From a virus (Duplodnaviria > Heunggongvirae > Uroviricota > Caudoviricetes): 32,811 nt of DNA. The notes under the pieces are model-generated. The model was not told the origin of the DNA and made no database searches. It worked only from the letters and a program-made list of their open reading frames with translations. The stretch lies in the IMG/VR virus record IMGVR_UViG_2563366806_000002. One strand, written 5' to 3'. The position numbers and the translations under genes were made by a program. Positions 3,145-31,622 of this stretch are shown one piece after another. Every line of letters begins with the position of its first letter. Position 1 is the first letter of the stretch.

Positions 3145-3555
3145 GTGATGGGGGATAGGGTTATGAGTATCGGGCAAGAAAAACCAGTATCCGGGCGTCA
3201 GATGTTCCTTGAACAGCGCGCCCGTTTGCAGTCGAGCATTTCAGTTTCCCGCACCAATGACACGGCGAGCCGTTTTAATCGCCTGGGCGAGACTCAGAAA
3301 AAGGTGATCATCCTGCTGGCAAACGAAGCCGCGCAGCGGTTTAAGGATCTGCCGTCCCTGACTCATTCCCATCTCACTATGCCTTTCGAACAGTTCAGCT
3401 CTCAGGACAAAGTGAGCCTGATGTTGGGCATTAAGCGCCTTGCCGAGCTGGCTGCGGCGTTGCCGTGGGAGTTTCCCGATTATGCCGCGCCGCGCCTTGA
3501 AATTCAGGCGTTACGCGAATCACAACCACCCGCGCCGGATGGCGCAGTCAATTAG
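3145..3555 (+). CDS. Hypothetical early protein (start may be ATG at 3163)
   Basis: 136-aa ORF in the early operon; RBS GGGGGA precedes the internal ATG. Confidence 0.5.
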   Translation: MMGDRVMSIGQEKPVSGRQMFLEQRARLQSSISVSRTNDTASRFNRLGETQKKVIILLANEAAQRFKDLPSLTHSHLTMPFEQFSSQDKVSLMLGIKRLAELAAALPWEFPDYAAPRLEIQALRESQPPAPDGAVN

Positions 3556-3624: not shown

Positions 3625-4566
3625 ATGATTCGATCACTACTCAAATGGCCCGGTGGCAAAAGCCGCGTGATGCCTGAATTACTCCCGCATTTACCAAAGG
3701 CTGGTTGCCTCGTGGAGCCTTTTGTTGGCGGCGCTTCCGTGTTCCTCAATACCGATTATCGCCGCTATATCCTTGCGGATATCAACCCAGACCTGATCCG
3801 CCTTTATCGTGAGGTGAAGAGCAATCCTGAGCTGGTTATTGACCTTGCCCGCCCGCTCTTTGCGACCGGCAATTCCAAAGAGGAATACTTACAGAACCGC
3901 CGCATTTTCAACGGTACTAAAGGCTTGCTTGATGTGGCCCGCGCGGCTCTGTTTCTTTACCTCAACCGCCACGGCTACAACGGCGTGGTGCGTTACAACC
4001 AGAGCGGCGGTTATAACGTGCCGTTTGGTCAGCATAAAAGCGCGCCTTACTTCCCGGAGGCGGAGATCCGGCAGTTTGCTGAGAAGGCCAACGACACCAA
4101 AGCCATTTTCTTGTGCAGCTCGTTTCAAAATACCCTCAAAGTGATGGTTGGAACGGATGAAGCCATCTACTGCGATCCGCCATACCTGCCTGCCAGCGAA
4201 ACCGCCAATTTCACTCAATACCACACCGAGCCATTCACCGAGCAGCACCACCGCCAGTTAGCGGCGGAGCTGCTGGAAGTGAACCGCAAATATGGCGCGC
4301 CGGTTGTCATTTCCAACAGTGACACCGAAACCACCCGCGAGATTTACCACCGTTTCCGCCTGCATGAAATCGACGTGCAGCGCTCTGTTAGTACTGACGC
4401 CAGCAACCGCCAGAATGCTAAAGAGGTGATCGGCGTTCTCAAGGTATGCGAAGGGTGCGGGCGCGCGGGCGGAGGCAACTGCCCGGACTGCGGGCCGTGC
4501 TGTGGTGATGCCACTTACAACGCGATGGTTGCAGCGGGCGCTTTTGATGAGCAAGGGGGTTTCTGA
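3625..4566 (+). CDS. dam: Dam-family N6-adenine DNA methyltransferase with Cys-rich C-terminal tail
   Basis: Strong similarity to E. coli Dam (LKWPGGK, CLVEPFVGGASVFLNTD, LFLYLNRHGYNG, DPPY motif); extra tail CEGCGRAGGGNCPDCGPCCGD. Confidence 0.9.
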   Translation: MIRSLLKWPGGKSRVMPELLPHLPKAGCLVEPFVGGASVFLNTDYRRYILADINPDLIRLYREVKSNPELVIDLARPLFATGNSKEEYLQNRRIFNGTKGLLDVARAALFLYLNRHGYNGVVRYNQSGGYNVPFGQHKSAPYFPEAEIRQFAEKANDTKAIFLCSSFQNTLKVMVGTDEAIYCDPPYLPASETANFTQYHTEPFTEQHHRQLAAELLEVNRKYGAPVVISNSDTETTREIYHRFRLHEIDVQRSVSTDASNRQNAKEVIGVLKVCEGCGRAGGGNCPDCGPCCGDATYNAMVAAGAFDEQGGF

Positions 4567-4802: not shown

Positions 4803-5014
4803 GCATGAAACAGAATAAGAGCGCGGTTTTATCATCAATCCAAAATGTTGCTGTTTTCTTCAATTACGGCGGTGAAACAGTAGCGTTAAAAATGACAGCC
4901 GAACAAAAGAGAGTGATCGGCCTGTTTGCTATTTCAGCCGTTGAAGGTACTGCGGAACTGGTGCGGGTGCCTCATTTGTCATTACCAGCAGATCCAGAAA
5001 TGGAGGCTCTGTAA
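4799..5014 (+). CDS. Hypothetical protein
   Basis: 71-aa ORF, ATGA overlap with the upstream gene. Confidence 0.5.
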   Translation: MSMKQNKSAVLSSIQNVAVFFNYGGETVALKMTAEQKRVIGLFAISAVEGTAELVRVPHLSLPADPEMEAL

Positions 5015-5322
5015 TGTCAAAAATCTATATCGCTGGCCCAATGAGCGGTTTGCCTGGCTTTAATCGCCCGGCGTTTCACCGTGCAGCCGCGCACATTGTA
5101 CGGCGCGGAAATGTTGCTCTTAATCCGGCGATCCTGCCGGATGGCTTAGAGCAAGCGGAGTATGTGGATATCTGCCTTGCCATGCTTCGCTGCGCTGATG
5201 GCATCTTCATGCTGGACGGTTGGCAGCAGTCTGCTGGGGCAAAAGCAGAATACGCGCTTGCTGAAAAGTTGGGGCTGGATATTCAGCACCAGATGATTGA
5301 TCGGTACGTGGGCGCACGATGA
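5014..5322 (+). CDS. DUF4406-like (nucleoside 2-deoxyribosyltransferase-like) protein
   Basis: 102 aa, IYIAGPMSG motif; translationally coupled on both sides. Confidence 0.55.
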   Translation: MSKIYIAGPMSGLPGFNRPAFHRAAAHIVRRGNVALNPAILPDGLEQAEYVDICLAMLRCADGIFMLDGWQQSAGAKAEYALAEKLGLDIQHQMIDRYVGAR

Positions 5323-7928
5323 CCACCGCAGCAAGTGGGCGTGGCGCTCCAACGCCGCCCCATCCGTATCCGGGTAGCGCACCAGACGCCACCCGGTACG
5401 CTTACGAATGGCAGAAGCCGAAAGCTGCCATTTGTGTTGATAAGACTCCCGTTGTTGATCTAGTCGAGCTGGGTCAAGAACAGGAGTTTTTGGCGTGGGT
5501 GAAAGTTACCCTTGCGCCGCTACCTCGCTTTATTCGCCTGCGTCTGGCTTCCCGCATTGACAGTATTCACACCATGAAGGGCAGACACATCGCCCGTCTG
5601 GCGCTACGCGATATCATTCGCAGGGATCTGCCACCCATCAACATGGTTAATGAGCAATACGCTATTGCGATGACCGATGAGGCTGAATCTCAGGCTGATA
5701 CAGCATTCAAAGGGGTAAACCCGCTTTACCACACGTTTAACACTCTTCACGGATTGGTTGAGCGCTTTAACCGCCTGCCGGACTTCACGCCGGAAGATGT
5801 TGAGCTGCTGGCGCAGGATATTGCTATCTATATGCGGTCTGTGCTGAGCGAAGTTCACGAGACGGTAGAGACGCAGAGTGATCGCAAATATGCCGAATAC
5901 CTTTACACCGAAGCGGCTATCCTCGCGCGGCTTTTCTTCCTGACGCCTCCAAGCTGGGAAAAGTATTGCCGGGGCGCGCTGTTTATTGATGAAGCTACTA
6001 CCGGCATCAGAAAGATGCTGGATGATCGCTATTGGCACCGTAACCTGAAAAAGTACGCTGCGCGCTGGCGCGAGCACCTGCACATTGCCTTTGGTGACGT
6101 GAAGCGGGGCGCTGCACCGTATTGCAGTAAGCACCATGTTGATGAGTGGGATGCCAGGCGTAAACGTAGCCGCGCGATCATGGCCCGTCTTGAACTGGAA
6201 GACCAGGACACCAAAGAGCGCATTTCACTTATTGAGCAGATCGATAAGAGCATTTCTAACCCGGCATTGCGCCGCGTTGAACTCATGACCCGCATTGGTG
6301 GTTTTGAGAAAGTAGCCACCGAAAGCGGCTATGCAGGCCAGTTTTTTACTCTGACAGCACCATCCAAATACCACGCCTATACCGTATTCGGTCATCGTAA
6401 TGCCAAATGGAACGGTGCCAGCCCAAGAGCAACGCAGCGCTACCTTAACCGGGTATGGCAAAAGATTCGTGCTGAGCTTGCCCGCCGTGAAATTCCGGTC
6501 TTTGGCCTGCGGGTGGCTGAGTCACACCACGATGGTACGCCGCACTGGCACGGCCTGTTGTTTTCCCTGCCGGAACATTCCGCCGAGTTGCTGGAAGTTA
6601 TGGAAGACTACGCAACCCGTGAGGATGCGGAAGAATTACAAGGTAAACACGGCAACCAACCGCGCTTTGATATGAAGCCGATCGATCATGAAATCGGCAG
6701 CGCCACCGGCTACGTGGTGAAGTACATCAGTAAGAATATTGACGGCTACGCGCTCGACGGCGAAACGGATGACGAGAGCGGCAGGCCACTGAAAGAAACA
6801 TCAAAACACGCTACCGCCTGGGCATCGTGCTGGGGCATCCGTCAGTTTCAGTTTTTGGGCGGTGCGCCGGTATCTGTCTGGCGTGAGCTGCGCCGGTTCC
6901 GCAATCAGGAGCAGGCCGACAAGATAAACCCGCTGTTTGCTGAGCTGCACCGCGCAGCGGATGCTGGCGACTGGCAGCAATACACCAAATTGCAGGGTGG
7001 GGCGCTGGTTGCCCGCCGTGATCTACCGTTGCGCATCTGGTACCAGCAGAAAGAAGAGCCAAATGATTACGGCGAGTATCTGGATCTTATTAAAGGTCTG
7101 GTGATGCCCGCTGCTCACATCCCACCAATTGAAACCCGCCTGCATACCTACCGCATTGTGCGTAAGAAACCGGAGGTTTTAGACGACTCCGGGCAGGCCG
7201 TTGACTTTGATTTTGACCTTCGGGGCGCGTCCGCGCCCTCTAGGACTCGTGTCAATAACTGTACTGAGGTCAAAAAACATACAAATTCAGGGGGTGACAA
7301 TTCGCCACCAGTTGAGCCTGAACAGTATGAAATTGGTCAAATGACCCACGAGCAGAAAAAACGGCTCAATGAAAGCATCAGAAACTACAAACCGGAACGG
7401 CAAAAATCACCTGCTGATGAGTTTGAGGCGCTGGCTAATGCCATTACGGCATCAGATTGTGATGATATTGAGCAGGCCAGGGCGGAGAGCTATCTAAAAG
7501 TTGCTCAAGAATTGAGGCAGCAGGAAAGGGATATGCCTGCTGTTACCGCGCCAGCTCCTATATCAGCCGATCGCATTGCGGCACTGGATGATTTTGCCAG
7601 ATCAATAGGCATAGAGCTGAGCACAGGCCAGTTATCGTTATTGCTACGCGGTGAGTGTTTGCGAATTGATGGCTTTATTGTCTCCGCAACCAGTAGCGGA
7701 GAGCTGAGACGCAGAAAAGATAACAGCGCTGACCGGAAGACCGCCGATTTGTGGCAGCATATGAAGCTAAGTCATAATGTTGACAGCAGAGATATCAGGC
7801 ATGATCCCGTTGGCAGCTATGCGGAAATGTTGAAAAAAGCTGATCCGGCTGCGTGGGACAGGTTGTTTGGTACCAGGAATCAGGAGCAGCGCGTATGTTT
7901 GACGAAGAACAGCGAGAGCAGGAAGTAA
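5319..7928 (+). CDS. A: Replication initiation endonuclease (P2 gpA-like rolling-circle initiator) with long C-terminal extension
   Basis: 869 aa; HUH-type segment ESHHDGTPHWHGLLF and catalytic Tyr region YVVKYISKNIDGY. Confidence 0.9.
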   Translation: MTTAASGRGAPTPPHPYPGSAPDATRYAYEWQKPKAAICVDKTPVVDLVELGQEQEFLAWVKVTLAPLPRFIRLRLASRIDSIHTMKGRHIARLALRDIIRRDLPPINMVNEQYAIAMTDEAESQADTAFKGVNPLYHTFNTLHGLVERFNRLPDFTPEDVELLAQDIAIYMRSVLSEVHETVETQSDRKYAEYLYTEAAILARLFFLTPPSWEKYCRGALFIDEATTGIRKMLDDRYWHRNLKKYAARWREHLHIAFGDVKRGAAPYCSKHHVDEWDARRKRSRAIMARLELEDQDTKERISLIEQIDKSISNPALRRVELMTRIGGFEKVATESGYAGQFFTLTAPSKYHAYTVFGHRNAKWNGASPRATQRYLNRVWQKIRAELARREIPVFGLRVAESHHDGTPHWHGLLFSLPEHSAELLEVMEDYATREDAEELQGKHGNQPRFDMKPIDHEIGSATGYVVKYISKNIDGYALDGETDDESGRPLKETSKHATAWASCWGIRQFQFLGGAPVSVWRELRRFRNQEQADKINPLFAELHRAADAGDWQQYTKLQGGALVARRDLPLRIWYQQKEEPNDYGEYLDLIKGLVMPAAHIPPIETRLHTYRIVRKKPEVLDDSGQAVDFDFDLRGASAPSRTRVNNCTEVKKHTNSGGDNSPPVEPEQYEIGQMTHEQKKRLNESIRNYKPERQKSPADEFEALANAITASDCDDIEQARAESYLKVAQELRQQERDMPAVTAPAPISADRIAALDDFARSIGIELSTGQLSLLLRGECLRIDGFIVSATSSGELRRRKDNSADRKTADLWQHMKLSHNVDSRDIRHDPVGSYAEMLKKADPAAWDRLFGTRNQEQRVCLTKNSESRK
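7221..7240. other. GC hairpin (GGGCGCG-tc-CGCGCCC) followed by AT-rich DNA inside the 3' part of A; candidate replication origin
   Basis: Palindrome read from sequence; in P2 the ori lies within the 3' part of gene A (recalled). Confidence 0.35.
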
Positions 7929-8610: not shown

Positions 8611-8916
8611 ATGCCAAAAATGAAAGATGGGGATCTGCTTTATAAAGATTACGTTAACCACGCCCGATCAGCTGGTGACGACCCAACCAAGATTATTTCA
8701 GATGCCAAGCGCTTTAACAGGCATGAAAAGTATGAGGTGCTTGATTTTCTTAATGCACTGCATGGACAGAACGGGGCAGACCTCGCCATCAAAACACGGC
8801 AAATTTGTGAGTGGATGATTCGCACCTATCTGCCTGGCACGATTCAAAGCACAAAAGCTGTTGAATCATGGGTTGCTGCAAACTTCGAAGAGCTTTCTAA
8901 AAAGTATCCATATTGA
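8611..8916 (+). CDS. Hypothetical 101-aa protein, AT-rich stand-alone moron
   Basis: AT-rich ORF with RBS AAAGGAA, 200-bp upstream gap, and a strong terminator directly after. Confidence 0.55.
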   Translation: MPKMKDGDLLYKDYVNHARSAGDDPTKIISDAKRFNRHEKYEVLDFLNALHGQNGADLAIKTRQICEWMIRTYLPGTIQSTKAVESWVAANFEELSKKYPY

Positions 8917-20287: not shown

Positions 20288-20897
20288 AACCCTCACGCCG
20301 CCCAGCTCAACGCGCCTTGAGCGTGTCGCCGCCCGTGTTTGCGCCTCTCTGGGGGAAGTGCGGGTACCGCTGCGTCAGCTCTGGGATCCGTATACCTGCC
20401 CGGTTGATCTGCTGCCCTATCTGGCGTGGGCTTTCTCCGTTGACAGATGGGATGAGAACTGGCCCCAGACAACGAAGCGTAAGGCGATAGCTGATGCGTT
20501 TTACCTGCACCGCTACAAAGGCACCACCGGAGCAATGCGCCGCGTTGTGGAGCCGTTCGGCTATTTCATCCGGGTTAACGAGTGGTGGAACATCGACACC
20601 GACCCAGGCACGTTTACGCTGGATATTGGCGTTGAAGAGGAAGGCATCAGCGAAGAAACCTATCAGGAGCTTGAGCGGCTGATCGCTGACGTTAAACCGT
20701 GTAGCCGTCACATGCTGGGCATGAGCCTGCACTTACAGACTACCGGCCCCCTTTATGTTGGTGCGTCTGCCTATCTGGGCGACACGCTGACCGTATATCC
20801 CTATTTCCCCGAAACCATTTCAGTTGGCGGTGCGGAGTATGTGGGGAGCGCAATTCATTTGATCGATACCGTGGAGATCTCACCAAGTGGCAACTAA
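20280..20897 (+). CDS. I: Baseplate/tail protein I
   Basis: ATG 20280 overlaps the J stop. Confidence 0.8.
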   Translation: MSKTLTPPSSTRLERVAARVCASLGEVRVPLRQLWDPYTCPVDLLPYLAWAFSVDRWDENWPQTTKRKAIADAFYLHRYKGTTGAMRRVVEPFGYFIRVNEWWNIDTDPGTFTLDIGVEEEGISEETYQELERLIADVKPCSRHMLGMSLHLQTTGPLYVGASAYLGDTLTVYPYFPETISVGGAEYVGSAIHLIDTVEISPSGN

Positions 20898-22209
20898 ATA
20901 TTATGCCCTGCTAACCAATGTCGGGGCCGCGAAGCTGGCGAACGCTACGGCATTGGGTGAACAGGTTGAAATTACTCAGATGGCGGTAGGGGATGGCAAC
21001 GGCGCACTGCCGACGCCAAACCCTGCGCAGACTGCGCTTGTGCATGAGCTGCGCCGCGCGCCGCTCAATACGCTGACCATTGACCCGGTAAACACCAACC
21101 AGATTATTGCTGAGCAGGTGATCCCGGAAGACGTGGGCGGGTGGTGGATCCGTGAGATTGGCCTGTATGACAGCGACGGCGACATGATAGCCGTGGCGAA
21201 CTGCGCTGAAACCTATAAGCCGTTATTGCAGGAAGGTAGCGGACGTATGCAGGTTATTCGCGTCATTCTGATCGTCAGCAGTACCCAGGCGGTAACGCTC
21301 AAAATTGATCCGTCTGTGGTGCTGGCAACCCGGCAGTATGTTGATGACCAGATAATCCAGGTTAAAGCCTTCGTAGATCAGCAACTGGCGGCGCACATCG
21401 CAGCGGCAGACCCTCATAAACAATATGCACCCAAGGCAAGCCCGGCCCTGACGGGAACGCCTACAGCGCCGACTGCGGCGCAGACAGTGAATAATACGCA
21501 GATTGCCACAACGGGATTTGTGAAATCAGCAATTGCTGCACTGGTAGCATCATCCCCGGCTGCACTGGACACGCTGAATGAATTGGCGGCAGCGCTGGGA
21601 AATGATCCAAACTTTGCCACCACTGTAACGAATGCGCTGGCGGGTAAGCAGCCGCTTGATAGCACTTTAACTAATTTATCGGGAAAGACAGTTAACGGCA
21701 TTCTCCAATACCTTGGTTTGGGAGAAGGTTCGGCATTACCCGTTGGTGTGCCTGTTCCGTGGCCTTCAGCCACTCCGCCAACAGGCTGGCTGAAATGCAA
21801 TGGTGCGCCTTTTTCTGCCGAAGAGTATCCGGAACTGGCAAAAGTTTATCCGACAAATAAATTGCCAGATTTACGTGGTGAGTTTATTCGTGGCTGGGAT
21901 GATGAACGTGGTGTGGATAGTGGGCGAACTCTGCTTTCAGCGCAAGGAGATGCTATTCGAAACATTACTGGCGGTTTTGGTCAGTTGCGCGTAAACAGCG
22001 AAATAAATGCAATTGTTGATGTTCAAAGTGTGAGTGGTGCTTTTTACGGAGGTACCTCAGTCCGGAATAACATCAACGTATCTATGACATACGCTAATGA
22101 CCGAAATATCCGACAAGATGTTCACTTCTCGGCGGCAAATGTTGTTCCAACAGCAAATGAAAATCGTCCACGTAACATCACCTTTAATTATATTGTGAGG
22201 GCCGCATGA
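20887..22209 (+). CDS. H: Tail fibre protein (P2 gpH-like); GTG start; variable C-terminal domain begins near 21727
   Basis: N-terminus (ALLTNVGAAKLANATALGEQVEITQMAVGDGNG) matches P2 H; the C-terminal ~160 aa lie inside the candidate invertible segment. Confidence 0.85.
   Translation: MATKYYALLTNVGAAKLANATALGEQVEITQMAVGDGNGALPTPNPAQTALVHELRRAPLNTLTIDPVNTNQIIAEQVIPEDVGGWWIREIGLYDSDGDMIAVANCAETYKPLLQEGSGRMQVIRVILIVSSTQAVTLKIDPSVVLATRQYVDDQIIQVKAFVDQQLAAHIAAADPHKQYAPKASPALTGTPTAPTAAQTVNNTQIATTGFVKSAIAALVASSPAALDTLNELAAALGNDPNFATTVTNALAGKQPLDSTLTNLSGKTVNGILQYLGLGEGSALPVGVPVPWPSATPPTGWLKCNGAPFSAEEYPELAKVYPTNKLPDLRGEFIRGWDDERGVDSGRTLLSAQGDAIRNITGGFGQLRVNSEINAIVDVQSVSGAFYGGTSVRNNINVSMTYANDRNIRQDVHFSAANVVPTANENRPRNITFNYIVRAA
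21701..21726 (+). repeat. Candidate Gin/Hin/Cin/Pin-type inversion crossover site inside H (TTCTCCAATACC-TT-GGTTTGGGAGAA)
   Basis: 15-bp core TTGGTTTGGGAGAAG (21713..21727) recurs inverted at 23546..23560; right half matches the recalled gix half-site GGTTTTGGATAA at 10/12. Confidence 0.6.
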
Positions 22210-22811
22210 TGAATAAAGCTGTATTAAATAGTGAACTCATTGCCATAAAAGCGGGAGACATTATCATTTATAATTATGATGGTGAAACGCGTGAATATAT
22301 TTCTACATCAACTGAATATCTCGCTGTCGGCGTCGGTATTCCGGCATGTTCTTGTTTGGATGCACCAGGTACACATAAAGCTGGTTATGCAATCTGTCGC
22401 TCTGTAGATTTAAATTCATGGAAATATGTGCCAGATCATCGCGGTGAAATCGTCTATAGCACCGAAACAGGAGAATCGAAAGAAATCACAGCTCCGGGTG
22501 ATTATCCTGAAAATACAACCACTATCGCCCCGTTAACGCCATACGATGAATGGAATGGTGAGAAATGGGTGACAGATACCGAGGCACAGCATCGCGCCGC
22601 AGTAGACGCGGCAGAAGCACAGCGTCAGTCACTGATTGATACTGCAATGGCTTCCATTAGTCTGATTCAACTGAAATTACAGGCCGGGCGGAAACTGACG
22701 CAGGCAGAAACAACCCGGCTTAACGCTGTGCTGGATTACATTGACGCGGTGACGGCAACAGATACCAGCACCGCGCCGGATGTCATCTGGCCTGAACTGC
22801 CGGAGGAGTAG
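22206..22811 (+). CDS. Tail fibre assembly chaperone (gpG/Tfa-like)
   Basis: 201 aa; conserved Tfa C-terminal motif LDYIDAVTATDTSTAPDVIWPELP. Confidence 0.8.
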   Translation: MMNKAVLNSELIAIKAGDIIIYNYDGETREYISTSTEYLAVGVGIPACSCLDAPGTHKAGYAICRSVDLNSWKYVPDHRGEIVYSTETGESKEITAPGDYPENTTTIAPLTPYDEWNGEKWVTDTEAQHRAAVDAAEAQRQSLIDTAMASISLIQLKLQAGRKLTQAETTRLNAVLDYIDAVTATDTSTAPDVIWPELPEE

Positions 22812-23223
22812 GCCATTCAATATCTGGTGCACTGGAAGTATCGACCAGCTCCAGTGCGTCCAGATAATCCAGCCACAAATTATATTGCGCCAGTTCCTCA
22901 CCTTTCAGACGACCAATAGCCGCTTTACCAACCCATTGTCTACTGTTCATATAATCGTTGGCCTGATTAATCAATTGCTGCTTTTTAGTTTCGGCTGATG
23001 CAATTTGTTCTTCACGTGTTGGCGGTGGAACATCTGCCCATGCTGGCATTCCATCGTCTCCGGTAATTCTGTACTTACCGTCAGGCGGCGTATCATGGAA
23101 ATATTCCCTGAAAATAGCTTCGTCTATATCCACGCCTTTACCTTCGGGCCATTGGCCTTTTGCAGCGTAAACAGACTGGAGGGCATAAGGGTACGCCAGA
23201 TTATCAACATACAAATATTTCAT
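22783..23223 (-). CDS. Alternative tail fibre assembly chaperone (Tfa'), convergent with and overlapping the + strand tfa
   Basis: 146 aa with the same C-terminal motif LDYLDALELVDTSSAPDIEWP. Confidence 0.8.
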   Translation of the reverse strand: MKYLYVDNLAYPYALQSVYAAKGQWPEGKGVDIDEAIFREYFHDTPPDGKYRITGDDGMPAWADVPPPTREEQIASAETKKQQLINQANDYMNSRQWVGKAAIGRLKGEELAQYNLWLDYLDALELVDTSSAPDIEWPTPPAVQAR

Positions 23224-23225
23224 AA

Positions 23226-23555
23226 TTAACGCCCTTTCGCGTAGAAGGCTCCACCTTCAAAGCCATAGTTACAATGAGCAACGAAACCTGTTTTCGTCCA
23301 GTTAGTTGCGCCCCACATATTCCCACCACCAAAACCGCCGTCATATACAATCACTACGTCTGGCTCCTGCGTAAAAGGAATGGGGAAAGTCACATTTGTA
23401 GATACCGCCGCGGCGTTAGTCGGGAAATTAATTCTTCCCCACTGTTCAATTGAACCATCAGGCAATTTTTGCCAGCCAGATCCTGATGAATAAGCTGACA
23501 TGTCTGGTATCTGATTCGCCCCAGTCCCCACATTCCTTTTCGCCGCTTCTCCCAA
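23226..23555 (-). CDS. Start-less alternative tail-fibre C-terminal cassette (Hc')
   Basis: Gly-rich fibre-tip-like 109 aa; begins exactly at the shared GLGE junction found in H; no ATG or RBS of its own (track start is TTG). Confidence 0.7.
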   Translation of the reverse strand: MGEAAKRNVGTGANQIPDMSAYSSGSGWQKLPDGSIEQWGRINFPTNAAAVSTNVTFPIPFTQEPDVVIVYDGGFGGGNMWGATNWTKTGFVAHCNYGFEGGAFYAKGR

Positions 23556-23572
23556 ACCAACCTTTGATAGAA
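23546..23572 (-). repeat. Partner inversion crossover site at the 5' edge of the Hc' cassette (minus strand TTCTATCAAAGG-TT-GGTTTGGGAGAA)
   Basis: Perfect inverted copy of the 15-bp core in H. Confidence 0.6.
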
Positions 23573-23683
23573 GCTACAGCACCGCCATAAATGACCGTGC
23601 TGCAGCACGGTTAAAAGTGACGGTGCCCGATGATTTCGGTACCACACTGCCAACAATGAACGTGTTGGCCATAAAAAATAAAG

Positions 23684-24133
23684 TTAGAAATTCACCCCCG
23701 CTTTCACCATAGACAGCACATCATCGTTGGTAATTTCCGCCAGCTTCTCCCTGATATCCTCGCTGACCTTTTTCAGGGTGAGAGTAAAATCAATCTTCCG
23801 CGCTTTCCCGTCCTGAAAGAACTCAGTGCGATTCTGGGTTAACCCGTCGATCACATACATACCGTAAATCTTGCCGGTACCTTCAATCAGGGGCCAGGCT
23901 CTGCCGGTGTATGCCATTGTCTCCAGCGTAGTGAGCGACACATCGCCGCCGCTGATTTCCGGGTACAGCGTACCGGATAGCGTGATCGGCTCTTCATCCG
24001 GGCCTATGTACTGATAGCGCGGGGATTTCCCCACGCGATCGTTTTTGACGTGTCGCCATGTATTCGACTGGTTCGACGTCTGGTAGGGCGTCGTTTGCAG
24101 TGCAAACGGAAACATGCCCAATATCATCATCAT
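23684..24133 (-). CDS. U: Tail protein U
   Basis: 149-aa ORF after the tape measure on the minus strand; gpU-like. Confidence 0.85.
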   Translation of the reverse strand: MMMILGMFPFALQTTPYQTSNQSNTWRHVKNDRVGKSPRYQYIGPDEEPITLSGTLYPEISGGDVSLTTLETMAYTGRAWPLIEGTGKIYGMYVIDGLTQNRTEFFQDGKARKIDFTLTLKKVSEDIREKLAEITNDDVLSMVKAGVNF

Positions 24134-24144
24134 GGCTTTGCCCC

Positions 24145-27075
24145 TTATTCGTGGTCGGTCAGTTGCGAGCGTTTGCGCCGTGCGGCCTGCAGCTGGGCAA
24201 CGGTGAACTCTTCGCGGATGTGCTGGACAAGTTTTTGTTCATCCATCTGGCCCGCATCGTTGATGTTGATTTCAAAGTTAAACACGTCGCCGCCAGGCAT
24301 CAGCGCCGCGACGGAAGCCGCAGACGGAACCGCCGACACTGGAGAACGGGCGGCAGGCTGCTGAACACTGTACGGCAGCACCGAAGAAACGAGCGCGCCA
24401 GCCTGCTGCTGCATCCATGCTGTGAGTGATGGCACCTGCCGCTGAACCTGCTGCACCGGTTCGGCGTACCCGCCACGGATAGGAATGTACGGCTGCTTAT
24501 TCTTGAAGACGATTTCACCGGGGCCGTCTTTCTTCTCTGCCGTGTTGCTGGCGATTTTATCCAGACTACCGCTGATCTTAGGTGCGAGGTTTGCCGGGCC
24601 TTTCAGGTTATTGGCAAGCGCCTGCTGTTGCTGGCTCTGTTCGGTTTTTCGCTTCTGCTCCTTCTTCTCCTCTTCCTTCTTCGATTGCGCGGTGACGGCT
24701 TTCAGATCCCCGGCAAGCGTATCCGCCAGCCCGGTAAGTTTCTTCTGCGTGTTCACCTGCTCAACGGCTTTTTTGGCTCTCTCTGCCTGATCGGGGATCA
24801 AGCCCAGCTTTTCCAGCACCAGATCCAGACCTTTCCAGAGTTGTTCAACGGGCCATAGCACCAGTGAGATGGCCTCACCCACAATCTTGCCGAAGGACTC
24901 CCCGGCGCTGGTACAGGATTTAAGCGCCTCAGTGGAGAACTGGATCGGCTCAAACAGCTTTGTAAACCAGTCCCATACCGTACTGAGCGCGGAGATGATG
25001 GCGTCAAATATCGGTACCAGCGGTGAGAATACTGCGGAAACGATAGAAAAGATCGGCTGTAGCCCCTGCATCAGACCGGTGAAGAACCCGCTGAAAAACG
25101 CCTTGATAGGTTGCCAGAACTGGATGATCGCAATAGCGACGCCAGCAAACAGGGCAATCAGACCCCAGACTGGGGCAGAGATACCCGCCAGCAGCGTGAT
25201 CAGGGGGCCAAAGACCGCACGACCGGCAGTAAGTAGCGCCTGCATAGGCGAACCAGCCAGCCACTGAAACGCGCCGCCCAGCCGGGTGATGCTGGTCAGC
25301 AGCTTAGCGATCCCGCCTTCACCTGCCAGCGTGGTAAAGCTCAGGCGTACAAGGGCCATCGGGCCAAGAATTGCGCCCAGCGCCAGCATAAGCGAACCCA
25401 ACACCGTGAGAATGGCACCAATCGCGGCGACGGTCTTCATGATGGCGGCAACCAATGCCGGGTTGGCTTCAATCCAGCCCCGGATTGATTGCAGAACGCC
25501 GCCGACTGATTTCATAATCGCCATCATTGGCCCGCGCATGGTTTCGCCCAGCGCGCTGAAATTGTTGCCAAACTCAGCTTTGGTTATCTGCCACTGTGAT
25601 GAAAGGGAATCTTTATCAATATCGGATTCCCGCTTCATGGATCCTTTCGACGCGGTGCCGTGGGTTAATTCGAGCTGTCTGCGCAGCTCAGGAAGATTGT
25701 TGGCGACCTTTCTTACTGCCATGGCATATTCATCACCAAAAAGCTGAGTAAGAACGTTTAGTTGCTTGTCGTCGTCAAGCTTTTTGGTGGCTTCCATCAC
25801 CGCCATAATGGTGCCCATGGCGTCTTTTGCCATGTTCTTCTGCACCTTCTCCGCGCTCAGCCCCAGCGCGTCCAGACCTTCCATAAACCGATCCGGTTGC
25901 ACCATGGCGTTGCCCAACTCGCGCACCATCGCTTTAACAGCAGTACCAGCAGTCTCTGCGCCTTCACCAAGGCTCAGGAATGTAGACCCTAACGCCGCCG
26001 AGTTCTTATAGCCGAGCTGATCGGCAGTGCCGCCCACTCGCAACAGAACATCAATTATTTCGGAGCCTTTTGATTTGGCGTTATCGTCAAGATAGTTAAT
26101 GGCGTCGCCTAATTCGCCAATATTCTGTATTGGTACTTTGTACAGGCCTGCAATCTTACCCAGGCTTTCTGACAACTGATCGGCAGGCAGCTCAAATGCT
26201 TTTGAGGCCATGGCGGCAGTGTTGGCAAAATTCAGCAGATCTTTTTTCTGCTTCTGCCATGGATCATCGCTATTAGCCACGCCCATACGAGCGCCGCCCT
26301 CTACCAGCGCGGCATAATCAACCGCCCCGTTGGGCATGGGTAGATTTTCGGAAGCGTCTTTGATGGCCTTTTGCATCTCAGCAAACTGAGCTGTGCGGTT
26401 GCCGCTATCATCGCGCAGACCATTCACCTGTTTGGATACGCCCTTCATGGCGTCTTCCAGACTGCTGTAACTCTTGATAGCGGCGACGACAGGAGCTACT
26501 ACCGCCGCACCAGTCGCAGCGGTCTTCATGCCAGCGCTTTGCAGCTTCTCACCGGTTTCTTTGGCGCGAGCATAGCGGGCTTGCGCCTGAGTGACGGACT
26601 CAAGCCGCCGTTGTTGCTCAGTAAGCTGGCGGTTGTACTGCGCGGTGCGCTGGCTGATTTGTTCCGTTGCCCGGCTGGTGCTGCTGATCGCAATCCCTTC
26701 GCTGTAGAAGCTGGCGCGCAATTGATTAAGCTGGGCCTGTTCCGTTTTCTGCTGGGCTGTCAGGTTGCGGATCGCTGCCCGCTGCTGATTGAGGGCGGTA
26801 ACTTGCTCAGTGCTGCGCTGGCGTAGCGGGCCGAATGCCGCCGCCATTTCACGCGCCTGCGTCTTTGCCTGAGCCAGTTGATCGGTGGTCTTCTTATTGG
26901 CTGCGGTCAGCCGGTCAAAGCTGGAAGCCTGACGCTCAAGCCCTTTGATGCTGCTTTGCGTCTGCTTGATTTGAGAGGCCAGCGCGGCGGCGCTCTGGCG
27001 CGCCGCACTGACAGGGCGGGACATATTATTCAGGGCGCTGAAAGCAACCTGAATATTTAATTTGCGGTCTGCCAT
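24145..27075 (-). CDS. T: Tail tape measure protein (P2 gpT-like)
   Basis: 976 aa, coiled-coil and Gly/Ala-rich hydrophobic repeats typical of tape measures. Confidence 0.9.
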   Translation of the reverse strand: MADRKLNIQVAFSALNNMSRPVSAARQSAAALASQIKQTQSSIKGLERQASSFDRLTAANKKTTDQLAQAKTQAREMAAAFGPLRQRSTEQVTALNQQRAAIRNLTAQQKTEQAQLNQLRASFYSEGIAISSTSRATEQISQRTAQYNRQLTEQQRRLESVTQAQARYARAKETGEKLQSAGMKTAATGAAVVAPVVAAIKSYSSLEDAMKGVSKQVNGLRDDSGNRTAQFAEMQKAIKDASENLPMPNGAVDYAALVEGGARMGVANSDDPWQKQKKDLLNFANTAAMASKAFELPADQLSESLGKIAGLYKVPIQNIGELGDAINYLDDNAKSKGSEIIDVLLRVGGTADQLGYKNSAALGSTFLSLGEGAETAGTAVKAMVRELGNAMVQPDRFMEGLDALGLSAEKVQKNMAKDAMGTIMAVMEATKKLDDDKQLNVLTQLFGDEYAMAVRKVANNLPELRRQLELTHGTASKGSMKRESDIDKDSLSSQWQITKAEFGNNFSALGETMRGPMMAIMKSVGGVLQSIRGWIEANPALVAAIMKTVAAIGAILTVLGSLMLALGAILGPMALVRLSFTTLAGEGGIAKLLTSITRLGGAFQWLAGSPMQALLTAGRAVFGPLITLLAGISAPVWGLIALFAGVAIAIIQFWQPIKAFFSGFFTGLMQGLQPIFSIVSAVFSPLVPIFDAIISALSTVWDWFTKLFEPIQFSTEALKSCTSAGESFGKIVGEAISLVLWPVEQLWKGLDLVLEKLGLIPDQAERAKKAVEQVNTQKKLTGLADTLAGDLKAVTAQSKKEEEKKEQKRKTEQSQQQQALANNLKGPANLAPKISGSLDKIASNTAEKKDGPGEIVFKNKQPYIPIRGGYAEPVQQVQRQVPSLTAWMQQQAGALVSSVLPYSVQQPAARSPVSAVPSAASVAALMPGGDVFNFEININDAGQMDEQKLVQHIREEFTVAQLQAARRKRSQLTDHE

Positions 27076-27539
27076 TTATTGATCTCCGCCACTGCGCGCA
27101 GCGGCTTGATCACGCCATAACAGAAGTTCCTCTACCGTCATGGCGTCCATCTCCGCTGGTCGCCAGTGGAAAATGACGGCGATATCCGCCATTAAGTTTT
27201 CTATGCGTTCGCAGGGGCATCGGATGACGCGCTGCCCGTATCCGTCCCGCTCTGATCCGAAGGTGGTTGCAAAAAATCAACCACCGCATTGGCGAGCTGG
27301 CAGAAGTCCCACGTATCCATGCGGGCGATTTCGTCAGCGGTCAGCGCCGGGGCGGTAACGCGGGGCAGCAGAACAACCAGCGCATCATAATTCGACGTCA
27401 GAACGTCATAGACTTTTAAGCCACGCAGCGATCCGGCCTGCTTTAAGACTGGCGTGATCGTGATTTCGCTGATTGCCGTCTTGCCGCGAACGATAGGTGC
27501 ATTGAGCGTTACAACTTCTTTACCGGTTACTTTGGTCAT
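27076..27539 (-). CDS. Tail assembly chaperone E+E', product of a -1 programmed frameshift (about 155 aa)
   Basis: Slippery heptamer T TTT TTG in the E frame at 27270..27276; the -1 frame is open for 65 codons and stops at TAA 27076..27078, one base before the T start. Confidence 0.7.
27201..27539 (-). CDS. E: Tail assembly chaperone E
   Basis: 112-aa ORF immediately upstream of T. Confidence 0.8.
   Translation of the reverse strand: MTKVTGKEVVTLNAPIVRGKTAISEITITPVLKQAGSLRGLKVYDVLTSNYDALVVLLPRVTAPALTADEIARMDTWDFCQLANAVVDFLQPPSDQSGTDTGSASSDAPANA
27270..27276 (-). other. -1 ribosomal frameshift slippery site T_TTT_TTG
   Basis: Zero-frame codons GAT TTT TTG (D88 F89 L90 of E) verified by hand. 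Confidence 0.7.
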
Positions 27540-27553
27540 GGTGCGTTAATTCC

Positions 27554-28069
27554 TTATAAGCCAATGTTAGCGCGGTGTTTTTCCATCATGTCAACGCCGC
27601 CAACTTTGTAGATCATATTGAGCACATCAACTTCAATGATTTCTTCGCCGTTGATGGTCAGCTTGTAATAGGTATTTTTCAGGGTGTACTTATGGGAAGT
27701 GTCATCCCCGGTTTTGGACGTACCCGGATCCATCTCCGTGAAGCGCCCGCGCGTCTGGATTTCAACGGGTACCGCTTCGCCGGTTGAATCATCTTGGTAA
27801 GACCCGGCATAGCGTGTTTGCATACCATCGGCGGTGGCGATGCCCCATTTTTTAAGCAGCCCCGCATCCATGCCGCCAAGGGTGATATCCATATCCAGCG
27901 CCCCGGCATCAAAGCCGAGATCGACCGCGACAGAACCCGGCATACCACCGGCCTGATAATCCTCTGTTTTGCGGGTTAACTTCGCCGGGGTGATTTCCGG
28001 CACCATGCCGAAATAGTTATCCCCGTCAAAGAACATGTTGAAGTATTTAAGTTTTTTAGGCAGAGCCAT
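27554..28069 (-). CDS. FII: Tail tube protein (P2 gpFII-like)
   Basis: 171-aa ORF with tube-protein similarity, between sheath and E. Confidence 0.9.
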   Translation of the reverse strand: MALPKKLKYFNMFFDGDNYFGMVPEITPAKLTRKTEDYQAGGMPGSVAVDLGFDAGALDMDITLGGMDAGLLKKWGIATADGMQTRYAGSYQDDSTGEAVPVEIQTRGRFTEMDPGTSKTGDDTSHKYTLKNTYYKLTINGEEIIEVDVLNMIYKVGGVDMMEKHRANIGL

Positions 28070-28081
28070 ACGCGCCCCCGG

Positions 28082-29278
28082 TTAGTTATTCACTGCGCTG
28101 GAAAACGTAGCGAAGTATTCATCAGTGAACTCCTGCACCAGGCTGAGATTTTCCAGCGGCGGGACAGGCGTGTAGTTGTATTTGATGGTGAGCTGCCCGT
28201 TGCGCAGCGTTTCGCTGGTATTCGGTTCAGGGTCGTACCAGCAGCGCGCACCCAGCAGCTTGCCCGCCGTCACATAGGACGTCAGCTTGCGGTTGATACC
28301 GTCAACGATATCTTTCACCAGCGACGGGGTGAGCGGCTTATCAACATAGGAGAAGTGAGCCTCTGCCACGGTATCCGCCACAATCTGAGCGGTACGGGTG
28401 TAGCTCTCAAAAATGTAGGTTTCTTCGTCGCAGGTACGTGATCCCCAGATGCGATAACCATCCTGTTTGATCAGGGTGGTGATGCCTGCGGCGTTCAGCT
28501 CGTCCGCATCGGTATCGGTGCCCTGTAGGGTGAAATAGATATCGCGATCCATCCCCAGCACGTTATTCACCGGCACGTTGGAAATGGTTTTGTGCCATCC
28601 CTGCGTTGCGTCGATTTTTGCTCGCATCCCTACCGCATGAGCACCCACCGGCACGGTGGCGTTTGCTCCCGCGTTGGTGTCGTAGCAAATGAAGTTAGGC
28701 CAGATCACCATCATTTCACGTTGGGCAAAATTCTCGCGGTACGTCTTCGCCTCTGCGATGGTGTTGCAGCCATTCGCGGATACGTAAGCAAAGGCGCGCA
28801 GTTTCTCAGCCATCACACCGAGCTGCGCCGCCACTGGCTGAGTATCAAGGCCGGGAACGGCAAGCACACGCGGGCGGACGCCAACACGCATCTCAGCCGA
28901 TAGCAGCGCATACATGCCGGTGAAAAGCCCGGTATCTGGGTCAGTACCGCCAATAACCAGTTGATCCTGCGTTGGGGCCGTGCCGCCTTCCGGGGGTACG
29001 ATTTTGGACGCATCAGCCACGCGGATCACAATGGTCTGTGGGCTGGTCTGGTCTGAAATGGCTTTCAGAGTGGTGAACAGGGTGCCGGTTTTGCCTGCTT
29101 TGCCCAGCATGTTAGCCACGCGGGTAATGAGTACAGGGGTATCCAGCGGGAAAGCTTCTTCGTCTGCATCGTCAGCGATACAAACGACGCCGATAACCGC
29201 CGAATCAATATCGGTGATCATCGTGCTCAGATCGGTGGTTTCCGTGACGGTTACACCGTGATGGTAATTTGTGGCCAT
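28082..29278 (-). CDS. FI: Tail sheath protein (P2 gpFI-like); ATG at 29278 (track ORF begins at TTG 29299)
   Basis: N-terminus MATNYHHGVTV parallels P2 FI MSDYHHGVQV; conserved C-terminus YTPVPPLENLSL. Confidence 0.9.
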   Translation of the reverse strand: MATNYHHGVTVTETTDLSTMITDIDSAVIGVVCIADDADEEAFPLDTPVLITRVANMLGKAGKTGTLFTTLKAISDQTSPQTIVIRVADASKIVPPEGGTAPTQDQLVIGGTDPDTGLFTGMYALLSAEMRVGVRPRVLAVPGLDTQPVAAQLGVMAEKLRAFAYVSANGCNTIAEAKTYRENFAQREMMVIWPNFICYDTNAGANATVPVGAHAVGMRAKIDATQGWHKTISNVPVNNVLGMDRDIYFTLQGTDTDADELNAAGITTLIKQDGYRIWGSRTCDEETYIFESYTRTAQIVADTVAEAHFSYVDKPLTPSLVKDIVDGINRKLTSYVTAGKLLGARCWYDPEPNTSETLRNGQLTIKYNYTPVPPLENLSLVQEFTDEYFATFSSAVNN

Positions 29279-29351
29279 GTAGTTGCCTCGCCAGGTCAAT
29301 GATTGCCACTTATCATTGCGACAATTGCCAGCCGGTGCGAGAGGTGGGCGT

Positions 29352-29369
29352 TGTCAGCAGACCGCAACA
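29352..29369. promoter_or_regulatory. TGT-N12-ACA dyad centred between the divergent FI and D starts (candidate shared late activator box)
   Basis: TGTcagcagaccgcaACA; 82 bp from the FI ATG and 80 bp from the D ATG. Confidence 0.45.
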
Positions 29370-29439
29370 ACAGCCACGCGTTGTCTGTACGCGCGCGCGT
29401 GGCGACGATGGTACCCTCACCAATGAGGGAACCAATAAG

Positions 29440-30567
29440 ATGTTGGATGATGATGCGCGTTATTCGCCCCGCCCGGCGTTCAGTATTCAGATTGAGGGCA
29501 AGCAGCTCACCGCGCTGGATGACCGTTTGATCTCGTTGTCGCTGACGGACAATCGGGGATTTGAAGCGGATACGCTTGATCTCACGCTGGATGATTCAGA
29601 CGGACAGATCGTTATGCCATCGCGTGGCGCGAAGATTTCCGTTTCGCTGGGCTGGGATAATGACCCGCTGATATTTAAAGGACTGTACACCGTTGATGAG
29701 GTTGCGCACCGTGGCCCGCCTGATCAGCTCACAATCAGCGCCCGCAGCGCAGACTTTCGCGACACGTTCAACGTGAAGCGTGAATATTCCTGGCACGATA
29801 TTACCGTGGGCGATGTGGTTGCCAGTATCGCCAGCCGGTACGACCTGCGAGCCGGGGTGAGTGAGGAACTGGCGAAGATTGAGATCGATCACGCAGACCA
29901 GACCAGTGAATCAGATATCAGCTTTCTCACCAGAATGGCGGATATGCTGGGTGCGGTTGCCACCGTTAAAAATGGCATGTTGCTGTTCATCACGCCGGGG
30001 CAGGGCTTAACCCAAAGCGGTAAACCATTACCGGCGATCAGCATTGTGCGGGCCAGCGGCGATAAGCACAGCTTTAGCATTGCCGATCGTGATGCTTATA
30101 CCGGCGTTACTGCCTACTGGCTGGATCTAAATTTCGGGAAGAAGCCTGCCACCACGGTACAGACAAACACCCGCAGACGCCGCAGAACAACCCAGCCGAA
30201 GAAGCCGAAAGAACCCGCCTCAAGCAGCAAAGAAGGGGATTACATGGCAGGCGCGGAAGGCAACGTATTCGTGATCCGCAAGACGTTCAAAACCGAGAAG
30301 GCAGCGAAGCGGGCAGCGGCGGCGAAGTGGAGCCAGTTACAGCGTGGCGCGGCGTCATTCTCCATCACGCTGGCGCGGGGCCGGGCGGATTTGTACCCGG
30401 AACAACCGGCAAGCGTATCGGGCTTTAAGTCCACGATTGATAACGGTTACTGGACGATTACCCGATGTGTGCATGATATCGGCAGCGGCGGCTTTACCAC
30501 CTCGCTGGAGCTGGAAGTTAAGATCGATGAATGGACGGCTGAGGCGGGTGACGAATCAACGGGTTAA
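29440..30567 (+). CDS. D: Tail protein D (P2 gpD-like, late control D family)
   Basis: ATG 29440 with RBS GAGGGA; N-terminus MLDDDARYSPRPAFSIQ is gpD-like (track ORF begins upstream at TTG 29269). Confidence 0.9.
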   Translation: MLDDDARYSPRPAFSIQIEGKQLTALDDRLISLSLTDNRGFEADTLDLTLDDSDGQIVMPSRGAKISVSLGWDNDPLIFKGLYTVDEVAHRGPPDQLTISARSADFRDTFNVKREYSWHDITVGDVVASIASRYDLRAGVSEELAKIEIDHADQTSESDISFLTRMADMLGAVATVKNGMLLFITPGQGLTQSGKPLPAISIVRASGDKHSFSIADRDAYTGVTAYWLDLNFGKKPATTVQTNTRRRRRTTQPKKPKEPASSSKEGDYMAGAEGNVFVIRKTFKTEKAAKRAAAAKWSQLQRGAASFSITLARGRADLYPEQPASVSGFKSTIDNGYWTITRCVHDIGSGGFTTSLELEVKIDEWTAEAGDESTG

Positions 30568-30613
30568 GCGTTATACTTGACGTGATATTAACCAGCCCAG
30601 AGGAGGCCCGCGT

Positions 30614-30856
30614 ATGGCAATGCGCTGTCCTCGCTGCCGTGCAGTTGCGAAAACTCGTACCAGTGTAGAGTTGAGTGATTTAGTGCGACGCAGTTATCAC
30701 CAGTGTCAAAACATGTTGTGCGGCTACTGCTTTACCAGCATGACGCAAATAGACGAATCATTAAACCAGACTCAGCCAGTCCCCGGCGCGGTGGTTCCTC
30801 AAGACGTTTTCCCGCGAAGTCATCACGGCGAAGATCAGCTTAGTCTGGTGTTGTAG
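30614..30856 (+). CDS. ogr: Ogr/Delta-family zinc-finger late transcription activator
   Basis: CPRC...YHQCQNMLCGYCF matches the Ogr zinc-finger pattern CPLC...YHQCQNVNC. Confidence 0.85.
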   Translation: MAMRCPRCRAVAKTRTSVELSDLVRRSYHQCQNMLCGYCFTSMTQIDESLNQTQPVPGAVVPQDVFPRSHHGEDQLSLVL

Positions 30857-30870
30857 TTTCGAAGCAAGGC

Positions 30871-30900
30871 AAAAGCCTGCCGGACAGGCAGGCTTATTGT
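30871..30900. terminator. Bidirectional hairpin terminator between ogr and the convergent downstream gene
   Basis: AGCCTGCC-ggaca-GGCAGGCT stem, A-run on one side and T-rich on the other. Confidence 0.6.
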
Positions 30901-31622
30901 TATTGCAGTTCTTTCAGTTCAACAATCTTACCAGTGGCTATATCTACTTTAGCGGAAACGGTGTTTTTTACCGTTGCCCCAAGAGCATTTGCGCCACGGA
31001 ATGTTGTCACAAATACTGCATATGGTTTTTTGTCTTTCTCAAACATTAATTGATGGGTGGTTTTGATATGTTTGTAGGATGAGTCATCGTTCATCTGTTC
31101 TTTGATCGCGACCTCTAAGGGGTAGTAGACGCCGTTATAGTCGCTCAGCATTTCATCGAAATTATCAAAATTTATACGGTCAGAAAGAGATGTTGCATCG
31201 CGGGTAAAATCTGAGTAACACCAATCAAGCACTTGATCGAGGTGTAGTTCTTCCGATTTTCTATGAGAATATTCGCTTAGGCAGTTGTAGAAGTCATTAC
31301 GTGCAGATTCAGGGATCTTTTTAAATTTAACATACGAGTTAACAATTTCGCGTCTGTCTTCCTTATCGTTCTTAACTCTCCATTCCTTTAGTGATAAATC
31401 GGCGTATTTAAATTTTTCTTCTTTAATCGGTGGGCGTTCTTGAGCGTTGCTTGAGGTAGAAGGGCGTAAACTGGCCCCTATTGCAGCAACGACTAAGCAC
31501 ATTGAGAAGTAGAAAAGAGACGATTTTTTTCTGTTTGGCATGAAAACCCACTTTGGATTTATAAGCCCGATCCAGAAAGCGATACCGGCTATCGCTGCAA
31601 TGATAGTGATGATTTTTTCCAT
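30900..31622 (-). CDS. AT-rich membrane-anchored protein of unknown function (candidate cargo/moron)
   Basis: 240 aa; two N-terminal hydrophobic helices then a charged soluble domain; strong RBS GGAGGG; clearly lower GC than flanking DNA. Confidence 0.6.
   Translation of the reverse strand: MEKIITIIAAIAGIAFWIGLINPKWVFMPNRKKSSLFYFSMCLVVAAIGASLRPSTSSNAQERPPIKEEKFKYADLSLKEWRVKNDKEDRREIVNSYVKFKKIPESARNDFYNCLSEYSHRKSEELHLDQVLDWCYSDFTRDATSLSDRINFDNFDEMLSDYNGVYYPLEVAIKEQMNDDSSYKHIKTTHQLMFEKDKKPYAVFVTTFRGANALGATVKNTVSAKVDIATGKIVELKELQ

Follow-up and report, generated by a model that had tools for sequence, protein, structure and literature searches.

A tail-fibre cassette without an adjacent invertase in a P2-like prophage of Escherichia coli, recovered in both orientations

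Invertible tail-fibre cassettes are described in textbooks as self-contained units made up of crossover sites, an enhancer, and an invertase gene. The locus studied here raises the question of how such a cassette can switch when the phage that carries it has no invertase gene. It lies at 21701-23572 of a stretch of 32,811 nucleotides (IMG/VR record IMGVR_UViG_2563366806_000002), referred to as the window, which is essentially a complete P2-like prophage of Escherichia coli. The tail-fibre gene H, its chaperone gene tfa, and an alternative fibre tip with its own chaperone are found there between two inverted crossover sites. We consider it likely, with a rough probability of three in four, that the cassette is a genuine Gin/Pin-type switch turned orphan, which is flipped in trans by the invertases of co-resident prophages. 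A complete temperate phage would then outsource the enzyme for its host-range switch. The evidence comes mainly from copies of the same prophage that carry the cassette in opposite orientations.

Cassette layout and crossover sites

The cassette and its immediate surroundings consist of the following features:

20887..22209, plus strand: H, the tail fibre in its present orientation, 440 amino acids (open reading frame, ORF; Pfam Phage_tail_fib and Collar; exact protein WP_001514738.1)
20887 to the core at 21713/14, plus strand: Hc, the constant fibre part, within H
From 21715, plus strand: Hv, the variable tip with the Collar domain, within H
21701..21726, no strand: left crossover site inside H, TTCTCCAATACC TT GGTTTGGGAGAA (outer half, 2-bp core, inner half), one mismatch to the hix-type pattern
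21715..23558, no strand: invertible segment between the cores (Hv, tfa, tfa', Hv'), identical but reverse-complemented in flipped copies
22206..22811, plus strand: tfa, the tail-fibre assembly chaperone paired with Hv (Pfam Caudo_TAP_N and Caudo_TAP)
22783..23223, minus strand: tfa', the alternative chaperone paired with Hv' (Pfam Caudo_TAP)
23226..23558, minus strand: Hv', the start-less alternative fibre tip (Pfam Gp53-like C-terminal domain, Gp53-like_C)
23547..23572, no strand: right crossover site, TTCTCCCAAACC AA CCTTTGATAGAA (inner half, core, outer half), matching the hix-type pattern
23573..23683, minus strand: intergenic backbone block of 111 bp, from the site to the gpU stop, with a 48-bp imperfect palindrome at 23579-23626
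23684..24133, minus strand: gpU tail protein, last gene of the tail operon FI-FII-E-T-U (Pfam Phage_P2_GpU)

A perfect 15-bp inverted repeat (TTGGTTTGGGAGAAG / CTTCTCCCAAACCAA) has its arms at 21713-21727 and 23546-23560, 1818 nt apart. By itself, a 15-mer inverted repeat says little, as about 0.5 are expected by chance per 32.8 kb and a chance 14-mer (I10) exists. The 26-bp hix-type pattern TTCTCNNAAACCNNGGTTTNNGAGAA, searched with at most 3 mismatches, matched solely at 21701-21726 and 23547-23572, and 0 of 100 shuffles matched. The two sites are inverted and built alike, with two 12-bp half-sites around a 2-bp core, and their cores (TT/AA) are identical. Their inner half-sites and cores agree with those adjoining real invertase genes of relatives. 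The right outer half-site, read outward as TTCTATCAAAGG, falls within the natural range (compare TTATAAAAAAGG in the invertase-linked relative L007). Moreover, the 15-mer of the window is that of the inverted repeats of the e14 P segment (TTGGTTTGGGAGAAGG / CCTTCTCCCAAACCAA; compared with PMC12529663), which have been used experimentally and are inverted by PinE, PinQ, and PinR (PMC12529663). Both sites encode ...LGLGE, and the reading frame is kept after inversion at the TT/AA cores.

Several of these features had been put forward in an earlier note made from the sequence alone. The layout given there, H and tfa on the plus strand followed by a convergent tfa' and a start-less alternative tip on the minus strand, is borne out by the ORFs and the Pfam matches. 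The start-less tip does exist; its name in the note, Hc', was misleading, since it is the variable C-terminal part and not the constant one. The 15-bp core with its perfect inverted copy and the 26-bp contexts resembling Gin, Hin, Cin, and Pin sites were found again, as described above. The note further held that a shared GLGE junction lets inversion join the constant N-terminus of H to the alternative tip; the simulated fusion is in frame and occurs in public data. The proposed likeness to the Mu G and P1 C segments is also supported. A serine recombinase gene lies just outside the right-hand site in L001, a prophage of E. coli 2020N21-246 with the same lineage and layout (between Hv' and U), and in L007, an unrelated myovirus prophage of strain TOK-001, whose cassette matches that of the window at 96.6% identity, precisely from one site to the other. 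The canonical P2-like prophage L032 of E. coli ECONIH4 also carries a cassette and a recombinase gene, followed by FI-FII in the P2 order. An adjacent serine invertase gene, as present in these three relatives, was not found in the window, in agreement with the note. A tblastn search with the 193-amino-acid recombinase of L001 gave a best E value of 0.39, and the sole recombinase in the Pfam search of the window was the tyrosine integrase at 1-981, with no resolvase- or invertase-like protein. As for gene U, which the note placed directly after the cassette, it follows beyond the 111-bp structured spacer.

Both orientations in public sequences

Strand exchange at the cores was simulated, and the predicted proteins were looked up by exact sequence among about 15 billion proteins. 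In the simulated inversion, H becomes a 386-amino-acid Hc+Hv' protein, followed by tfa'. Exactly this protein is present in public data (HBC5561833.1, E. coli, 7 contigs); the window's own H protein was found in 1 contig in the same look-up. In three flipped contigs, the prophage is that of the window; no recombinase is present, and the cassette is directly followed by U:

L029, ENA metagenome scaffold: flanks of 10,841 and 8,295 bp with 0 mismatches to the window; interior of 1,848 bp (21713-23560) 100% identical and reverse-complemented
L028, GCA_018157235.1: flanks as in L029 with 3 single-nucleotide polymorphisms (SNPs); interior as in L029
L030, Logan run: extends across the flipped left junction; interior partial

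The breakpoint between flank and interior in the flipped copies coincides with the left site at 21701-21726, inversion breakpoints being resolvable only to within the 15-bp repeat. The same was seen with a second allele, that of the orphan cassette in ECONIH4. Its predicted flipped fibre of 444 amino acids exists as EHS4883361.1. In the contig L033 (SRR15049161), 4,170 and 6,155 bp of flank are 100% identical to ECONIH4, the 1,860-bp interior is inverted, and no invertase is present. One state of this allele is thus found in ECONIH4 and the other in L033 and L034, with zero SNPs. Predicted flips were in frame in all eight of the other cassettes tested (L002, L003, L005, L006, L020, L023, L026, and L011).

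Because isogenic prophage copies exist in both orientations, the switch, as judged from these sequence comparisons, operates in nature and the cassette is not frozen. The earlier note had left open whether an invertase is supplied in trans or the cassette is frozen; the second option falls with two alleles that each occur in both orientations in otherwise identical DNA. A single loss of the invertase followed by repeated inversion would be the only economical reading of the comparison. In the literature, no earlier account was found of a complete phage whose orphan cassette is documented in both states.

Proposed inversion in trans and competing explanations

In its workings, the cassette is an e14 P / Mu G / P1 C system, all tested features having been found save the adjacent invertase and a recognisable enhancer in cis. 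The e14 P segment of E. coli K-12, served by PinE, has the same 15/16-bp crossover repeats as the window and the same arm layout of stf/tfa and tfa'/stf' in about 1.8 kb. The two cassettes share a sequence family, with tfaE annotated under the matches. In contrast to the window, pinE and presumably the enhancer adjoin the e14 segment, and e14 is a defective lambdoid element, whereas the window holds an apparently complete P2-like prophage. The Mu G segment with Gin and the P1 C segment with Cin resemble the window in the split fibre gene, with the constant N-terminus outside and the alternative C-termini and chaperones inside, and in the 26-bp sites with a 2-bp core; in Mu and P1, they switch the host range. 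However, gin or cin lies directly outside one site and carries the sis enhancer in its 5' end, and the segments are larger (3 and 4.2 kb). The same H-tfa / tfa'-Hv' cassette and sites are found in siblings of the L001 type and in canonical P2-like phages with an invertase (L032; Fels-2 with Fin). Even the inverted tail operon is common to L001 and the window, with U adjoining the cassette in both. These invertase-bearing relatives differ by a serine recombinase of 188-193 amino acids between Hv' and the next gene.

P2-like fibre hotspots have been described as frequently bearing an invertase, and phase-variable P2-like cassettes in E. coli were described together with their invertases (PMC4272514). 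Loci for xenorhabdicin, a P2-like tailocin of Xenorhabdus, contain invertible fibre fragments and no invertase in the locus, and a recombinase located elsewhere has been proposed (bioRxiv 10.1101/2025.04.19.648921). That case concerns a different genus and a tailocin, and inversion in trans is speculative there, whereas isogenic copies in both orientations are available for the prophage of the window.

The mechanism that we propose starts from a prophage in which the sites and both arms of fibre tip and chaperone are intact, and neither the invertase nor its internal enhancer is encoded. Recombination at the 2-bp cores would flip 21715-23558. The flip would exchange the Collar-type tip Hv and tfa for the Gp53-like tip Hv' and tfa' on a constant fibre shaft, and would presumably alter receptor specificity. 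The catalyst is probably a Pin/Gin-family serine invertase from another prophage or cryptic prophage in the same cell. Invertase-like DNA was found in 4,783 of 5,426 complete E. coli genomes (88%), and ECONIH4 has five invertase-like loci. There is precedent for action in trans: PinQ and PinR, of the Qin and Rac prophages, invert the e14 segment (PMC12529663). Cross-action has also been reported for Fin of Fels-2 on the Salmonella H segment and for PinE on Mu G and the Salmonella phase-determinant region (cited in PMC12529663).

The earlier note overlooked the enhancer. Loss of the invertase gene would also remove the Fis-dependent enhancer that normally lies in its 5' end, and this is the real mechanistic puzzle. 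In hin, gin, and cin, the enhancer is located in the 5' coding part of the invertase gene. This usual element would be missing from the window together with the gene. Hin-family invertases are activated by a Fis-bound 65-bp enhancer in cis, which is normally about 100 bp from the site and can also act from many kb away (PMC3798978). Since the usual cis enhancer lies inside the missing gene, inversion would be expected to be enhancer-independent or remotely assisted, and slow, at about 1e-5 to 1e-6 per generation or less. A rough estimate that assumes about 2e-10 mutations per bp per generation leaves 20 kb free of SNPs for about 1e5 generations. Therefore, 1e-5 to 1e-6 inversions per generation would suffice to give isolates in both orientations with 0-3 SNPs.

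Several observations weigh against inversion in trans. The invertase inventory covers complete E. coli genomes; an invertase in the host of the window (GCA_000350685.1) and in the hosts of the flipped copies is only presumed. Both states are known across assemblies of separate isolates, not as read mixtures within one culture, and the protein collection, in which sampling is thin, yielded no flipped form for five further alleles. A homology search of the window found no homologue of the 5' region of the invertase gene, where the enhancer resides. The scan for Fis motifs does not discriminate, as pairs at the putative enhancer position in L001 and L032 score no better than background. Finally, the Keio delta-pinE strain of E. 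coli K-12 was reported to be "locked" although pinQ and pinR are present (PMC12529663). This behaviour would fit an enhancer requirement, a connection that is ours and not discussed in that study, and locking in the laboratory would be the expected behaviour of an enhancer-less cassette.

Among the competing explanations, general or illegitimate recombination between the 15-bp repeats, either RecA-dependent or mediated by microhomology and with no site-specific enzyme, fares best and still appears improbable. A perfect 15-bp inverted repeat is available, and rare events would suffice for polymorphism among isolates. However, 15 bp is under the usual minimal length for efficient RecA action given in textbooks, the same event would have occurred in two alleles, and the breakpoints fall at canonical invertase sites that are proven substrates in e14.

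Somewhat less probable again is that the cassette is self-sufficient or efficiently invertible through a function in cis, be it the tyrosine integrase, an unannotated protein, or a cryptic enhancer. ORFs without a family match do exist at 3145-3555, 8611-8916, and 30900-31622. Two 15-mers resembling the Fis consensus are found in 21805-21866, inside the segment and about 100 bp from the left core. Their centres at 21812 and 21859 are 47 bp apart, and at about 100-145 bp from the left site into the segment, the pair is placed as a native enhancer would be. The pair is not significant, however (about 0.4 pairs are expected by chance per 4 kb), and it sits in conserved coding sequence of the Collar domain. 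Furthermore, hix-type sites are substrates of serine invertases and not of tyrosine integrases, and no resolvase- or invertase-like protein is encoded in the window.

A frozen relic, in which both orientations were fixed before the invertase was lost and no inversion takes place any more, is very unlikely. It would agree with the lack of both an invertase and a recognisable enhancer, and with the e14 segment of the delta-pinE strain being locked in the laboratory. Against this, the invertase-less junction is identical in the two orientations, and about 19 kb of their sequence differs by 0-3 SNPs. This is so in two alleles; identical deletions would have been required independently for each orientation and each allele. 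Mis-assembly of the flipped contigs is hardly credible: short-read assemblies are involved and some contigs (L030 and L034) end inside the cassette, but the repeat of 15-26 bp is shorter than assembler k-mers, so that the orientation is supported by reads, the flipped form was recovered on 7 + 3 contigs from an NCBI genome, from ENA metagenome assemblies, and from Logan runs, all independent of one another, and complete long-read genomes such as ECONIH4 hold one of the states.

With inversion in trans, host-range bet-hedging would hinge on the other prophages of the lysogen. The cassette offers a natural substrate on which to ask how much Pin-family invertases can do in vivo at sites that lack an enhancer, and if the prophages of one genome form a shared "invertase commons". 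For annotation and phage engineering, a cassette should not be treated as fixed for want of a recombinase next to it, and the "silent" fibre tip belongs to the receptor repertoire of the phage. The interest would be greater still if enhancer-less inversion in trans or invertase-driven exchange of cassettes proved true.

Cassette diversity, junction history and prophage context

The invertase-less junction of this prophage group has the sequence AACCTTTGATAGAAGCTACAGCACCGCC. In the form of AACCTTTGATAGAAGCTACA followed by the palindrome, it is a trait of the lineage, found in 5 complete E. coli genomes and also on 11 contigs of viral or metagenomic origin. The junction 24-mer had 0 matches in species-representative genomes, and a palindrome-pattern scan of these genomes had one, in a cassette-less relative in Dryocola. 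Relatives that share the junction carry two-armed cassettes with differing alleles (L002/L020, L003, L005, L006, L011, L023, and L026). Others have a single H-tfa arm and the same right junction (L018/L024 and L021/L027). As these single-arm members end in the tfa stop followed by GGAACCTTTGATAGAAGC, the outer half-site also occurs without a partner arm. In the cassette-less relatives L008 (Dryocola), L009, and L016, the tfa stop is followed by the palindrome and then U. L004 (ECONIH5) has a variant right inner half, CAATTGGGAGAA, and no inverted partner was detectable in its H.

Cassettes differ between near-identical backbones. In ECONIH4, NA3664, and CAVP776, the backbone is at least 99.9% identical to the window over about 10 kb. 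The three are free of mismatches to 1.7 kb left and about 5.7 kb right of the cassette, except for base 23548, in the inner half-site of the right crossover site of CAVP776. Four backbones that are at least 99.9% identical (L003, L005, L006, and the window) hold four different mosaic cassettes in the interval 21728-23545, which begin to diverge some 6 bp into the inner half-sites. The pattern resembles an exchange taking place at the crossover sites, but it cannot be sustained as proof of site-specific exchange. The backbones of L002 and L004 are about 80% identical to the window, yet the blocks 21479-21727 and 23546-23720 are 96-100% identical. Because diverged backbones share these near-identical flanking blocks, homologous recombination could swap cassettes without a trace. 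Gene conversion from the invertase-bearing P2-like prophage of ECONIH4 was rejected, the cassettes being only 93% identical. The orphan cassette of ECONIH4 and the co-resident invertase-bearing prophage have one tfa' accession in common (WP_016243527.1).

A wider proposal can be made only tentatively and is itself rather doubtful. The cassette would be a "free-riding" switch without a cis enhancer, whose host-range variation depends on the co-resident prophages. The invertases borrowed in this way, at work on the crossover sites as well as on secondary hix-like ones, might move whole cassettes between prophages, and might have remodelled the Hv'-U junction, including the loss of the invertase.

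Among backbones with about 80% identity elsewhere, the block at 23573-23683 is 96-100% conserved, and cassette-less relatives have it as well. The RNA 3' of U folds far better than shuffled sequences (z = -5.6), and the palindrome block may be the terminator of the tail operon. A simple terminator scan found no T-tract at the block, and a scan of 22700-23800 for intrinsic terminators and promoters gave nothing above chance. Neither an invertase nor a homologue of the invertase-borne enhancer was found in the block. A remnant of invertase-flanking DNA was rejected as a simple explanation of the palindrome: as cassette-less relatives carry the block between the tfa stop and U, it belongs to the backbone and is not debris of an invertase. 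An ORF of 32 codons, MANTFIVGSVVPKSSGTVTFNRAAARSFMAVL (minus strand, ATG at 23658-23656, TAG ending at 23560), begins shortly after the stop of U and, but for one TAG, would read on into Hv' in the same frame. It was rejected as a gene and is probably fortuitous, given an internal stop in L008 and the presence of the block where there is no cassette.

In prophages of the L001 type, the palindrome block lies 3' of the invertase and in the opposite orientation to that in the window. The last codons of U in L001 overlap, at 6504-6531, with the hix-like sequence CTTATATCGAAAGG TT GGTTTTCACC, a candidate secondary crossover site, the left half of which is similar to the window's outer right half-site. 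The C-termini of the U proteins diverge exactly from this sequence on (VKTNLSI* versus VKAGVNF*). Inversion of L001 between the right core and this secondary core was simulated, and the product is colinear with 23535-23660 of the window; the reversed invertase occupies the place where the window has only AAAAAATAAAG. Going by this colinearity, an inversion by an invertase at a secondary site, combined with gain or loss of the invertase, may connect the two junction types, in either direction.

As for the prophage as a whole, scaffold KB732238.1 of GCA_000350685.1 (L031) corresponds to 10887-32209 of the window at 100% identity. The P2-like (Peduoviridae) gene set was identified by Pfam, with int, cox, A, Q-P-O-N-M-L, X, the lysis genes, R, S, V, W, J, I, H, G, FI, FII, E, T, U, D, and ogr all present. 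The plus strand carries V-W-J-I-H-tfa, the genes for baseplate and fibre. After the cassette, gpU, the tape-measure gene T, E, FII, and FI follow on the minus strand, and D and ogr are on the plus strand. The canonical order of P2 on one strand, H-G-FI-FII-E-T-U-D, is thus not present: FI-FII-E-T-U (23684-29278, minus) is reversed relative to P2 and convergent with H-G, and U abuts the fibre cassette. D and ogr (29440-30856, plus) have been split off from the tail operon by its inversion. This arrangement is lineage-wide (listed for L001-L006 and L008-L034; L032 itself has the canonical P2 order). The intergenic region between FI and D (29279-29439) contains TGT-N12-ACA dyads, typical of Ogr-activated late promoters.

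At the prophage end, between ogr and a host cation-efflux gene, the ORF at 30900-31622 (minus) encodes 240 amino acids without a Pfam match. This position is a known hotspot for cargo and defence genes in P2-like phages. In the early region, upstream of the replication gene A, a TerB-domain protein, a D12-class (Dam-like) adenine methyltransferase, and a DUF4406 protein are encoded (2464-2895, 3625-4566, and 5014-5322).

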